A stretch of 9,571 nucleotides of DNA from an uncultured archaeon (GCA_964510585.1 CAZECW010000214.1:1-9571); one strand, 5' to 3'. Positions 1,038-9,351 are shown, counted from the first letter of the stretch. Translations and numbers: made by a program. The notes: generated from the letters alone by a model not told the origin.

Positions 1038-1516
1038 GTTTTTTAAAAATTTATATTTTTAATTTATAATTATATAACATTAATATTTTTATGTTTTTAA
1101 AAATTAAGTATTAATCTATATACCCTGTGAAGCGGCTGGAAAACAAAAAGAGAAAGTCTAAGCATAAATCAAAGTCCTCTTTTACCTTTTTATTTGGTTT
1201 TAAGTTTTGGTGATCGTTTTGCAAATTTTTCCTACCTAATTTTTTGTTTTTTTAGTTGTTCGGAAAATTTTTGCTCATTGATTAGTGGTTGGAGCGAAAA
1301 TTCTAAGGCGTTGCCCATTTTTAAGGGTCTGGAAACACTTTTTAGGGGGTTGCCCTATTGTTGTATTCTTGTTAAATTTGTGGTGTTGGCTTTTGGGCTG
1401 CAATTTGTTTTTAGTGTTTGAGTTGCTTTTTTGTTTTAGATTTTTTTTAAGTTTCTGAAAAGCCTTATAGTTTCCTGTGCGAATATTTTATTTAACTGTT
1501 TGTAGGGTGATATGGA

Positions 1517-2332
1517 TTGTCTGGTAAACCCAGTTATGCGCTTATGCTTCAAATTGAACATGGAGAAAAAGTTCCTCTTCCCTTTAAGCAAGAAAACTTG
1601 TCCAGTAGCAGTATCGTTGCCACCATAGATGAGCAGAATAGCGCCTTGTATTTGTGGTTTGGGAAGGAGTGTAGCGATTTGGTCAAAAGATCCGCTTTGC
1701 GCACCGCTCAGTCTATAAAGAAGTCAGGATTTGCATATGGGCAGCTCCACATTGGACACGACTTAAGGGAAATAAAAATAGTAGACGAATCCAATTTAAA
1801 TGATCCCGAAATTCAAAGGAACCATGAAGAGTTAACCGCAATTTTCAAGCGTAAATTTACAATGAAGGATCAGTTCGTGATGGAAATTGGAAGACCCCAA
1901 ATTGCTCCCCAGCCCGCAGAAAAACAAGCATTTACACCGCCCATGCCTGAACCCAAAATCATTGCTCCTAAACCAACAGCTGCACCTCAGCTTGCTCCAA
2001 GTGTTGAGGAGGCTCCCCTAGAACAGCCAGTTGCTCCCAAGCCTACTAGTCCAAAGGCGGTAGCAACAACTGTTGAGCCTGAATTGATTGGGCAAGTTAA
2101 GCTGGGACTTTTATCTGTTTTGTTGGCTTCCAAGTTTTCCGGTTTCCAGTTAAAGACCACCCTGTCAAGTGATGGTAAGCCGGTCTACGAGTTCTTTAGT
2201 AGCGGAGGCACCCTATGTAAAGCTTCCCTAGATGGATCAGATTTAGTTATTTATCCTGAGTCTGAATTCGGTGGAAGAAGAGAAGAAATAATTGCTGCTT
2301 TGAAGAAGAAAGTCAGTTCACTCAACTTTTAG
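1517..2332 (+). CDS. Gelsolin/villin-like domain protein (Asgard-type): N-terminal gelsolin-like domain, Pro/Ala-rich linker, C-terminal domain of unknown function
   Basis: aa 28-69 LSSSSIVATIDEQNSALYLWFGKECSDLVKRSALRTAQSIKK fits the gelsolin-repeat pattern (L.S....lD......lYlW.G..s....r..A...A..i). aa 126-188 contain 17 Pro in 63 residues. TTG start with GGTGAT RBS at 1506-1511. Confidence 0.72.
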   Translation: MSGKPSYALMLQIEHGEKVPLPFKQENLSSSSIVATIDEQNSALYLWFGKECSDLVKRSALRTAQSIKKSGFAYGQLHIGHDLREIKIVDESNLNDPEIQRNHEELTAIFKRKFTMKDQFVMEIGRPQIAPQPAEKQAFTPPMPEPKIIAPKPTAAPQLAPSVEEAPLEQPVAPKPTSPKAVATTVEPELIGQVKLGLLSVLLASKFSGFQLKTTLSSDGKPVYEFFSSGGTLCKASLDGSDLVIYPESEFGGRREEIIAALKKKVSSLNF

Positions 2333-4460: not shown

Positions 4461-4505
4461 ATAATCATCAATATTTGGTTCACCAAATTGGTGGAGGCTG
4501 ATATT

Positions 4506-4871
4506 ATGCCTGAAGAAAGGCAGCTGGAACCCGCAGTGCCTCTTAAACTCAGCAGCCTGGAAGACTTGGCGAGGATGCTTGTTTTTTGGGTTGCTAGAGA
4601 GCGGGGGGCTTCAATATTGTATTTTGAAAAGGATGGCAAGCATATATATGGAGCACTGACGGTGAGCTTTCCGGGATACTATGAGCTTAGGGGTGTTCCC
4701 CTATTTATCTGTGTGATTGGAAAGGAGGCTCCCAAGGGACAGTTTCTGCGGTATCAAGGGCAGCCCGAGGAATCTATTGCCTTTGTAAAATCCATAGAAA
4801 TAGATCCAAAATATCAATACATTCCCATAATAAAACTTGCTGAACCCCCCAAATTTGTTGGAAAACTATGA
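4506..4871 (+). CDS. Conserved hypothetical archaeal protein (resembles a small uncharacterised crenarchaeal-type family); ORF track start is TTG 4488
   Basis: Motifs LSSLEDLAR, YYELRGVPLF and YIPIIKLAEPPKF resemble, from memory only, a small Thermoprotei protein family. GGAGG at 4493-4497 favours ATG 4506. Confidence 0.65.
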   Translation: MPEERQLEPAVPLKLSSLEDLARMLVFWVARERGASILYFEKDGKHIYGALTVSFPGYYELRGVPLFICVIGKEAPKGQFLRYQGQPEESIAFVKSIEIDPKYQYIPIIKLAEPPKFVGKL

Positions 4872-5133: not shown

Positions 5134-6489
5134 TTACCAAATCACTTCTTTGGGGGAGGCTCTGGCAAAGCTCCAGATAAAAACAAGGAACCAAAGTAAT
5201 ACAGTTACAGCCACGGCAGAGGTCATTATTATGCTGTTTGTTTGTATAAGGTACCATATTTGAAATGTTAGGTTAAGGTAGATTGTGTTTCCCGTGTCTA
5301 TGAAGAAGTATACCAGTACTTTGGGAATTTCATGAATGGGAATGTATAAGTTTGACCAGTAATGATACGGAACCCACTTTATTACCAAATCTAGCAGGGT
5401 ATAAAGGTATAGTGATAAGTATTTTGGTATTGTGGCTAGTTGGATTATGAATTTGCCTGTGAAATAATCTACTCCCAGAAAGGATCCCGCGAATATGAAG
5501 CCCACCAGCGAAGGGTTGAACCCAGTTCCTCTTTGAACCCCCTTAACTAGACAAACCAAAGTCACGAAACCTATTATTCCGAGGCAAGCATAATTAATAT
5601 AGTTGAAAAGGAGCTCTGGATCTCCTCCCCAAGTGACATAGCCTGAGGGACTCAAGCCTGGAAAATAGATGTAGGGAACAGTCAGGTACGCTAAAATTAG
5701 GAAAACGATGAACTCAAAAATTGCGAGTAACCTGTAAGGCACCTCGGTCATTTTTATACCATATGTTTGCGCTTCGAATTCTCCTGCTCCCGCAAATATT
5801 AGCCAGATTATGGAGCCAATTGCTAACGCGTCAACTATGCACATTGAGACCACGTACACCATAATCATGGTGTTTGTCCATATGCCCCAAATCCAATTCG
5901 CCAGAAGGGCGAAGATTTGTTCACGGTAAAAAATATATGCGGCGTAGGCAGGCAGAGGGCAAATCATAAGCACCAGGAGAGCTCCATAAGCTATGCGGAT
6001 GTCTCTGCTCGCCTTCCAAACCCATTCACTCCTAGTTATGATTCTACCCGCAAGGATAATTCCTGCAAAGACGCTTAGAATAGGCGAAATTGTGGGAAGA
6101 ACAAAAAACAGGATAACTATTAGGGCGTTGAAACCATAGAAAATCCGGTAGCGGAGGGGAATAATTGTAGAACTGCTATTCATTATGGAAAAGGTGTTGG
6201 CAAGCCTTGTCCTATTTATAACTATGAACAAGAGCCAAGGAAGAGAGAAAAAGATTGGGACAACCACATAATTCATAAGATAATCAGTACGATTAAAAAC
6301 TTGAAAAGCTTGAATAAAAAATTGATACACAGGAACATTAGCCAGGAACGGGTCTATGGGGAAGGGATACTGGTAAATTTTGTAGGGCGAGATAGCAAAA
6401 AGAAAGGCAAAGTATACTGGCAAACCTAAGGCGCAGATAACAACCAGCAACCTAACGGCTAAAACGCCACCAATCCTTCTACTCACCAC
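5134..6489 (-). CDS. Polytopic integral membrane protein of unknown function (about 10-12 hydrophobic segments)
   Basis: 451-aa ORF dominated by long hydrophobic runs; GTG start with GGAGG (6499-6495) 5 nt upstream; no recognised family motif. Confidence 0.8.
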   Translation of the reverse strand: MVSRRIGGVLAVRLLVVICALGLPVYFAFLFAISPYKIYQYPFPIDPFLANVPVYQFFIQAFQVFNRTDYLMNYVVVPIFFSLPWLLFIVINRTRLANTFSIMNSSSTIIPLRYRIFYGFNALIVILFFVLPTISPILSVFAGIILAGRIITRSEWVWKASRDIRIAYGALLVLMICPLPAYAAYIFYREQIFALLANWIWGIWTNTMIMVYVVSMCIVDALAIGSIIWLIFAGAGEFEAQTYGIKMTEVPYRLLAIFEFIVFLILAYLTVPYIYFPGLSPSGYVTWGGDPELLFNYINYACLGIIGFVTLVCLVKGVQRGTGFNPSLVGFIFAGSFLGVDYFTGKFIIQLATIPKYLSLYLYTLLDLVIKWVPYHYWSNLYIPIHEIPKVLVYFFIDTGNTIYLNLTFQIWYLIQTNSIIMTSAVAVTVLLWFLVFIWSFARASPKEVIW

Positions 6490-8826: not shown

Positions 8827-9351
8827 TTATTTATTTTGTTGGGTGGCTGGTTTTTTTATGGTTTTTATTATTTCTTCGAGTTTCTGGAGAAGTTCTGGAT
8901 AAACTTTTTTGTAGTCTTCTAGTTCCTGTCCTGTTTCTTCCACGAAGTTGATGAATTCCCTTATGGCCTTAATCTTTTTGTCAAAATTTATTGCCAGTTC
9001 GTTTTCCCGCCTTATCAGTGTTTCCATGTCTATCAGTCCTTCGAGGGCGTTTCTGAGGTAAAAGAAGGTTTCCTCCGCGTTGGTGGCAGTAATGGCTTGT
9101 TTAACCCAGAATAGGTGGGAAAAAAACTCGTTAATGGCCCTCTTTCTTAATTCTAGGTACTCAATTATTCTCTGAACATACATACGGGTGTCCTCTGCCA
9201 TTTCCAAGTATTTTTCGGCGTGTTCCCTGATAGCTTCTGCCGACTCTATCTCCCCGTTGAATCTTTTTCTTATCTCGTCGGTTAGCCTTTGACACAATTC
9301 CAAGTACTCTTGAACCTGCTTCTTTTGCGCTTCCTCCAATTTACTTCCCAA
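8827..9351 (-). CDS. Hypothetical all-alpha / coiled-coil protein
   Basis: 174-aa ORF, E/K/L/I-rich with amphipathic helical pattern and almost no Pro/Gly; TTG start after GCTGAT-AGGT. Confidence 0.75.
   Translation of the reverse strand: MGSKLEEAQKKQVQEYLELCQRLTDEIRKRFNGEIESAEAIREHAEKYLEMAEDTRMYVQRIIEYLELRKRAINEFFSHLFWVKQAITATNAEETFFYLRNALEGLIDMETLIRRENELAINFDKKIKAIREFINFVEETGQELEDYKKVYPELLQKLEEIIKTIKKPATQQNK

Follow-up and report, generated by a model that had tools for sequence, protein, structure and literature searches.

Gelsolin-type regulators lie at the heart of the case for a dynamic, regulated actin cytoskeleton that predates eukaryotes. The gene at positions 1517 to 2332 in the 9,571-nucleotide stretch of archaeal DNA analysed here (the window) raises the question of whether it encodes such a regulator, and of what kind. 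The original prediction had read a gelsolin-type domain at 1517-1891 (aa 1-125), in a protein with one such domain plus extra domains, encoded alone among the housekeeping genes of an Asgard host.

The gene and its host

The gene and its putative ribosome-binding signal are located as follows.

1506..1511, plus strand: Shine-Dalgarno-like motif GGTGAT, read in the sequence, 6 nt 5′ of the TTG start
1517..2332, plus strand: the whole gene, encoding a 271-aa protein with a gelsolin domain, a linker and a C-terminal domain; TTG start, stop codon TAG at 2330-2332

The open reading frame is a real gene under constraint, because the TTG start and the GGTGAT motif are kept in five orthologues from Jordarchaeia/Freyarchaeota MAGs (L011-L015) and synonymous changes far outnumber non-synonymous ones. 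Compared with the 93%-identical orthologue L011, the codons of the N-terminal domain showed 28 synonymous and 3 non-synonymous differences, those of the linker 18 and 8, and those of the C-terminal domain 12 and 7. Purifying selection thus includes the C-terminal domain. The median identity was 76% for the gelsolin-homology (GH) domain, 67% for the C-terminal domain and 48% for the linker, which is the fastest-evolving part of the protein. The peptide quoted in the original prediction, IDEQNSALYLWFGKECSDLVKRSALRTAQSI, represents residues 37-67 of the 271-aa protein.

Expression data came from the X14 RNA-Seq metatranscriptome, which has two short contigs, about 96% identical, over 1505-1830 and 2074-2256. 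They give a weak hint that the gene is transcribed in a relative, since this is one study with contigs only and DNA carry-over is possible. None of the X14 RNA-Seq contigs lay upstream of 1505. This contig end is 12 nt 5′ of the TTG, at the edge of the Shine-Dalgarno-like motif, and DNA contigs extend further upstream. Coming from one study and from contigs only, the end at 1505 may hint at the start of a short-leader transcript.

The host is an Asgard archaeon (Jordarchaeia/Freyarchaeia), in agreement with the prediction. A homology search with the whole protein found 21 close homologues, and the close homologues all came from Jordarchaeia/Freyarchaeota (Freyarchaeia) MAGs. The window's DNA occurs in hot-spring metagenomes, and its genome is 3.78 Mb in size and 96% complete. 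Its gene complement includes a eukaryote-like actin (PF00022, 456 bits), a 201-aa two-domain gelsolin (2DGel, 87 bits) and a second gene, P0023 on contig C65, of the "one GH domain plus X" (Gel+X) type. With the actin, the 2DGel and the other Gel+X gene, the host has a substrate for a GH protein. Searching the genome for profilin with Pfam PF00235 gave no match; Asgard profilins are known to be divergent, which makes this null result weak.

The N-terminal domain is a complete gelsolin-homology domain

We assign the following elements to the N-terminal domain.

1517..1891, plus strand: GH domain, aa 1-125, ProGel-like (AlphaFold2 model, structure search, and profile A3 against the PDB)
1628..1663, plus strand: DWG signature, D38 ... 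W47-x-G49 (family alignment; the motif is defined in PMC7444086)
1676..1726, plus strand: long basic helix, aa 54-70, DLVKRSALRTAQSIKKS (AlphaFold2 model; the most conserved surface element)

In the AlphaFold2 model of the full-length protein, which was built from 21 homologues, aa 1-125 formed a single compact domain with a pLDDT of about 90-96. The modelled strands cover residues 6-14, 17-21, 33-38, 43-48, 85-90 and 114-124, while the long and the short helices cover residues 54-70 and 97-110, respectively. The model thereby has the mixed β-sheet between a long and a short helix that characterizes the gelsolin fold.

Two independent structure searches gave the same answer. We scanned 48,161 PDB representatives by VIA-align, and the top match of the N-terminal domain was the Thorarchaeota ProGel (7C2F), with a Z of 12.1 and an rmsd of 1.9 Å over 87 of 88 residues. 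Domains of fragmin, the Thor, Heimdall and Loki 2DGels, adseverin, gelsolin and villin followed at Z 8.4-10.5, and all 18 chains at Z ≥ 8 were gelsolin-fold domains. The gelsolin-like domains of Sec23/24 matched at Z 6.3-8.8. Foldseek placed 7c2f_B first, and every chain among its best 50 was gelsolin-type.

Profile searches led to the same family. The profile A3, representing 76 diverse N-terminal domains of the family, had 34 matches in the PDB at E ≤ 1, and all 34 belonged to the gelsolin superfamily (gelsolin, villin, adseverin, CapG, fragmin and Asgard gelsolins). It matched ProGel (7c2f_B) as a single domain at E 8.6e-8 over 60 gapless residues, and villin and gelsolin at E 1.3e-13 and 1.6e-8, both values being summed over repeats. 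With the profile A1, 27 of the 29 PDB matches were in the gelsolin family. In a library of 1.8 billion proteins, the full-length family profile reached multi-repeat proteins of ~800 aa at E 3e-8 to 1e-4. A single-sequence phmmer search found gelsolin at E 4.3e-5 and did not reach ProGel (7c2f). Together, these searches show that aa 1-125 are a complete GH domain, closest to the Thorarchaeota prototype ProGel, and the domain read in the original prediction is confirmed.

Pfam annotation sees little of this. The Gelsolin model PF00626 scored 13.4 bits (E 0.07-0.23), below its gathering cut-off of 21 bits, and a Pfam scan of the whole 271-aa protein gave no match at E ≤ 1. The sub-threshold score reflects divergence and not a different fold. 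Because the score lies under the cut-off, standard annotation misses the GH domain, and for the same reason the named homologues are all "hypothetical protein" lacking a Pfam domain.

The DWG signature, an Asp hydrogen-bonded to a Trp and then an obligate Gly, sets gelsolin and ProGel apart from cofilin, which carries a WP motif (Akil et al., PMC7444086). D38, W47 and G49 were invariant in the 21 close homologues, and in the wide family alignment they were kept in 69/76, 70/76 and 76/76 members, respectively. We rejected an ADF/cofilin identity for the N-terminal domain: ADF-H domains matched it at Z 4.8-6.5 only, compared with 8.4-12.1 for the gelsolins, and it has DWG, not WP.

The Ca2+-binding residues had been described as not assignable by eye. 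The type II Ca2+ ligand positions of gelsolin, an Asp where strand B begins and a Glu where the long helix begins, are occupied here by S31 and V56, an assignment that relies on sequence alignment only and may be off by one residue in either direction in strand B. Of the 76 family members, only 11 have an acidic residue at position 56. Judged by this alignment, the acidic ligands of the type II site are absent from the GH domain. ProGel has no Ca2+ sites (PMC7444086), so with S31 and V56 in place of the ligands, and with an acidic residue at position 56 being rare, the domain is ProGel-like in this respect too.

The long helix aligns to that of ProGel without gaps. Its conserved residues, K/R57 (72/76), R58 (65/76), R62 (71/76) and A64 (69/76), fit the KK..R.A pattern of ProGel, and we regard the helix as a putative actin-cleft-binding element.

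Among the known gelsolins, ProGel (7C2F) thus shares with this protein the DWG motif, the missing Ca2+-site ligands and the basic pattern of the long helix (KK....R.A). However, ProGel stands alone with ~90 aa, whereas this 271-aa protein continues into a linker and another domain, and the sequence identity is only about 14-15%. The GH fold also matches the second domain of the Asgard 2DGels (7C2G, 7C2H, 7WHF and 7WHG) at Z 8.8-10.4. Unlike the 2DGels, the protein has one GH domain, and we saw no central WH2-like LRRV/LKDV motif in it; the 2DGels bind four Ca2+ and are Ca2+-regulated (PMC7444086), whereas no Ca2+ ligands are seen here. The eukaryotic gelsolin, villin, adseverin and fragmin (PF00626) have the same fold (Z 8.4-10.5) and the DWG core. 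They differ in having between three and six repeats, with Ca2+ sites of both types I and II, as against a single repeat without those ligands.

The linker, the C-terminal domain and their distribution

Beyond the GH domain, the protein has two further parts.

1892..2071, plus strand: Pro-rich disordered linker, aa 126-185, 27% Pro (pLDDT, composition and low conservation)
2072..2329, plus strand: C-terminal α-β4-α domain, aa 186-271, found only in Asgard archaea (stand-alone model; it has no family name)

Residues 127-182 had a pLDDT below 50 in the AlphaFold2 model, and residues 185-271 formed its second confident globular part, with a pLDDT mostly above 90. The linker has ~60 aa here and 7 to 129 aa across the family. 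The C-terminal domain (C-domain, ~85 aa), when modelled alone from a 52-sequence alignment, reached a pLDDT of 93.5 and a pTM of 0.84, with a predicted topology of a helix, a four-stranded meander and a helix.

The C-domain is not a second gelsolin repeat. By profile search, the protein contains only one GH domain. Foldseek with the C-domain gave a best E of 0.045 and returned no gelsolin-fold chain, and exhaustive structural alignment gave a best Z of 5.6 (the tool states Z below 6 as its background level), with no match standing out and none to gelsolin. A Pfam scan of the 52 C-domain members yielded only scattered, unrelated noise (best E 0.017), and the PDB sequence search with the family had no match, its best E of 0.67 being among hits scattered over unrelated entries. 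In the ESM Atlas, the C-domain matched uncharacterised Asgard clusters only. The expectation of one GH domain with extra domains is therefore borne out, the remainder of the protein being a Pro-rich linker and a non-gelsolin α/β domain. Reading the C-terminal "LKKKV" (aa 262-266) as WH2-like was considered and rejected, as the motif lies inside the confidently packed last helix and K265 occurs in only 46% of the wider family.

An exhaustive HMMER search gave 107 family representatives at 50% identity, and iterative searching placed the C-domain in about 60 of 97 tail-bearing members. The members are labelled Frey-, Hod-, Hel-, Odin-, Hermod- and Loki-/Promethearchaeota. A six-frame search across 301 Asgard-phylum genomes found the C-domain in 124 (~40%), usually in a single copy, and did not find it in 177. 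Its presence is sharply divided by taxonomic family, for example 64/68 genomes of a large Loki-lineage family, 19/19 and 7/7 in others, versus 3/76, 1/29 and 0/11. The GH domain preceded the C-domain in 29 of 30 sampled frames, and the one exception was cut by a contig end. The C-domain thus defines an Asgard-only family of its own, joined in essentially every case to this GH domain. Of the 41 Asgard genomes sampled for actin, 36 had it; with the C-domain not found in 177/301, the protein does not count among actin's core partners.

Short paralogues of 182-216 aa occur in Jordarchaeaceae and relatives (P0019-P0022 and P0026). They have the same GH domain with a Pro-rich tail and a 12-residue N-terminal extension (MADEFAERKVKN...), and they carry no C-domain. 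This group was not found in the window's own genome.

The gene stands alone among housekeeping genes, as predicted. Its neighbours in the window encode an ABC ATPase, TrmI, a radical-SAM enzyme (rSAM), a DUF6125 protein, HycI and PyrF, and the order GelX-TrmI-rSAM is kept in relatives, down to an orthologue of 61% identity. Of the 110 Loki-lineage loci (L016-L045 and L076-L155), 102 have an ATP-dependent DNA ligase gene immediately downstream and in the same orientation; this order is kept in the Loki lineage and absent in Jordarchaeia. Among the conserved neighbours in the Jordarchaeia and Loki-lineage loci, there was no cytoskeletal gene. In the sequence stretch examined, no Roadblock/LC7 gene adjoined this gene or its C65 paralogue, and all 17 Roadblock matches lay on other contigs.

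A few other features of the window are recorded here. The spacer at 861-1516 (656 bp, GC about 26%) separates the divergent ABC-ATPase gene from the gelsolin gene. It holds a tandem repeat at 979-1045 (30 bp, 2.2 copies, 97% match), with further AT-rich repeats up to 1105, and had no blastn match in the orthologous loci. An Rfam scan of the whole window returned nothing. The ORF at 4488-4871 (plus strand, 127 aa, no Pfam family) is 100% identical in protein sequence to its orthologues in two MAGs (L011 and L013), while the genes around them are only 90-95% identical, making the small protein unusually conserved. Two other products belong to no Pfam family, a 451-aa polytopic membrane protein (5134-6489, minus strand) and a 174-aa coiled-coil-like protein (8827-9351, minus strand), with 69% and 63% identity, respectively, in the Freyarchaeia chromosome CP147778.

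Relation to published Gel+X proteins and possible function

The class to which this protein belongs has been described before. 1DGelX was defined as the combination of a single gelsolin domain with an unknown domain, X, and its GH domain in Thorarchaeota shares 35% identity with ProGel (Akil et al. 2020, PMC7444086). In the absence of Ca2+, the Thor protein both severs and nucleates actin; it binds actin with a Kd of 7.7 μM compared with 337 μM for ProGel alone (about 40-fold tighter), and its C-terminal extension was proposed as a filament-binding element (Akil et al. 2020, PMC7444086). In L. ossiferum, B35_GelX comprises a GH domain, an extensive linker and X (bioRxiv 10.1101/2025.11.30.690169; Nature 2026, PMC13716822), and five GH proteins co-immunoprecipitate with Lokiactin (PMC13716822). 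As both 1DGelX and B35_GelX have been published with the GH-linker-X layout, the architecture class is already known.

The paralogue P0023 (283 aa; locus L004:919-1770, minus strand, contig C65) is the ProGel-like Gel+X protein of this genome, with a Pro-rich linker and a C-terminal domain of ~120 aa. Its GH domain finds ProGel directly by phmmer (E 9.4e-9, ~33% identity). Its C-terminal X domain has no sequence match in the PDB. X domains of the P0023 type occur in 267 of the 301 Asgard genomes (88 of the 90 high-quality ones), often in several copies, as compared with 124/301 for the C-domain, and 28 of 29 frames had them joined to a GH domain. When we aligned the C-domain profile (A2) with that of the P0023-type X (A6) by hhalign, the probability was 1.75%, and on this profile comparison the C-domain is taken to be unrelated to the X domain of the P0023 family. 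From the reported identity figures and descriptions, we infer that the published 1DGelX and GelX proteins belong to the P0023 type.

Could the protein nonetheless be the Jordarchaeial orthologue of Thor 1DGelX and B35_GelX, so that both the family and its X domain would be known already? The layout is the same, a single GH domain followed by a long flexible linker and an X region at the C terminus, and both are restricted to Asgard archaea. Moreover, published counts list several "1DGelX" genes per Loki genome, which could include this family, and an ESM Atlas cluster labelled Thorarchaeota (264 aa) has the C-domain fold at a TM of 0.70. However, this GH domain is 14-15% identical to ProGel in structure-based alignments and does not reach it by phmmer, whereas the published domain is 35% identical to it and the other paralogue in the genome reaches it readily. 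The X domain of that paralogue is near-universal and unrelated to the C-domain by hhalign, and publications present X either as a coiled-coil model or as disordered, whereas the C-domain is a compact α/β domain in our model (pLDDT 93.5). On these grounds, orthology is unlikely, and the protein is probably not an orthologue of the characterised 1DGelX; the reported figures and descriptions would set it apart as a member of a separate, more divergent Gel+X family.

We think it fairly probable that the protein is a regulator of the Asgard actin cytoskeleton, of the "one gelsolin domain plus X" class. Most likely, it is a Ca2+-independent regulator that presumably binds actin. The missing ligands lead us to expect activity without Ca2+, and in assays Thor 1DGelX was Ca2+-independent. 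The long basic helix would bind the cleft lying between subdomains 1 and 3 of actin, as in the ProGel, G1 and cofilin complexes. This contact alone would be weak, and with the flexible tether of ~60 residues, the C-domain would be within range of a second site. The tethered C-domain would in this way add a second contact, which could be another site on actin, self-association or a cellular anchor, and turn a weak binder into an effective regulator. The outcome would be severing, capping or bundling, as reported for Thor 1DGelX.

Some observations count against a role on actin, and several of them would fit a gelsolin fold that has been re-used for another function. The Sec23/24 gelsolin-fold domains are, to our knowledge, not known to bind actin, and they match the N-terminal domain at up to Z 8.8 (from 6.3); the PF00626 score is sub-threshold, and no conserved neighbour is cytoskeletal. 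ProGel, the closest solved relative, binds G-actin very weakly (PMC7444086). The neighbours are housekeeping genes only, with a co-directional DNA ligase immediately downstream in 102/110 Loki-lineage loci, and many Asgard genomes that encode actin lack the family. On this view, the protein would act as an adaptor, with its real partner bound by the C-domain or the Pro-rich linker. We consider this rather unlikely, since the actin-binding gelsolins and the Asgard ProGel and 2DGels score clearly above Sec23/24 (Z 8.4-12.1), the PDB matches of the A3 profile were all actin-binding gelsolin-family proteins with no Sec23/24 among them, and the DWG motif and the basic long helix, both common with ProGel, are the most conserved features. 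An actin role might also take another form, if the C-domain were a KA1-like module that binds membrane or lipid and anchors the GH domain, and with it actin remodelling, to the cell membrane. KA1-type domains make up about 9 of the C-domain's 50 weak structural matches (Chk1, Kcc4p, SAD-B, the AMPK-α C-terminus, METTL16 and TUT1 KA-1), but their Z of 4.3-4.8 is within the tool's background, and equally good matches are unrelated to them (the spermine synthase N-domain, XisI and the RNase H3 N-domain). Lipid-binding KA1 domains are basic, while the C-domain is not (pI 6.5 here, family median 5.7). GFP-1DGelX was concentrated at nuclear-envelope/ER-like regions in human cells (Akil et al. 2020, PMC7444086), an observation made on a protein that is probably of the other Gel+X family. 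Membrane anchoring by a KA1-like domain is thus highly unlikely, and we keep to the reading of the protein as a Gel+X-class regulator of actin.

Tentatively, we propose that Asgard archaea have two independent "gelsolin + X" lineages. In the one described here, a diverged ProGel-like GH domain would be joined to an undescribed 85-aa α-β4-α domain, which may serve as a new module, for actin binding, self-association or anchoring, that empowers a single weak GH domain. How single GH domains gain function through accessory domains was a question raised by the authors of the 1DGelX study, who left it there, as domain X was not produced or crystallised. The C-domain (85 aa, pLDDT 93) is a compact, well-folding target for this question.

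In summary, the protein adds a divergent member to the set of Asgard gelsolins; its Gel+X layout is known, and its own X domain is probably undescribed. The finding is incremental: the protein class, its restriction to Asgard archaea and its likely role were known already. The Asgard gelsolin inventory rests largely on domain annotation, which this family escapes; being invisible to Pfam, the family may be missing from the published counts. That inventory would be enlarged by a further GH protein, bearing a conserved partner domain of its own, in ~40% of the sampled Asgard genomes.
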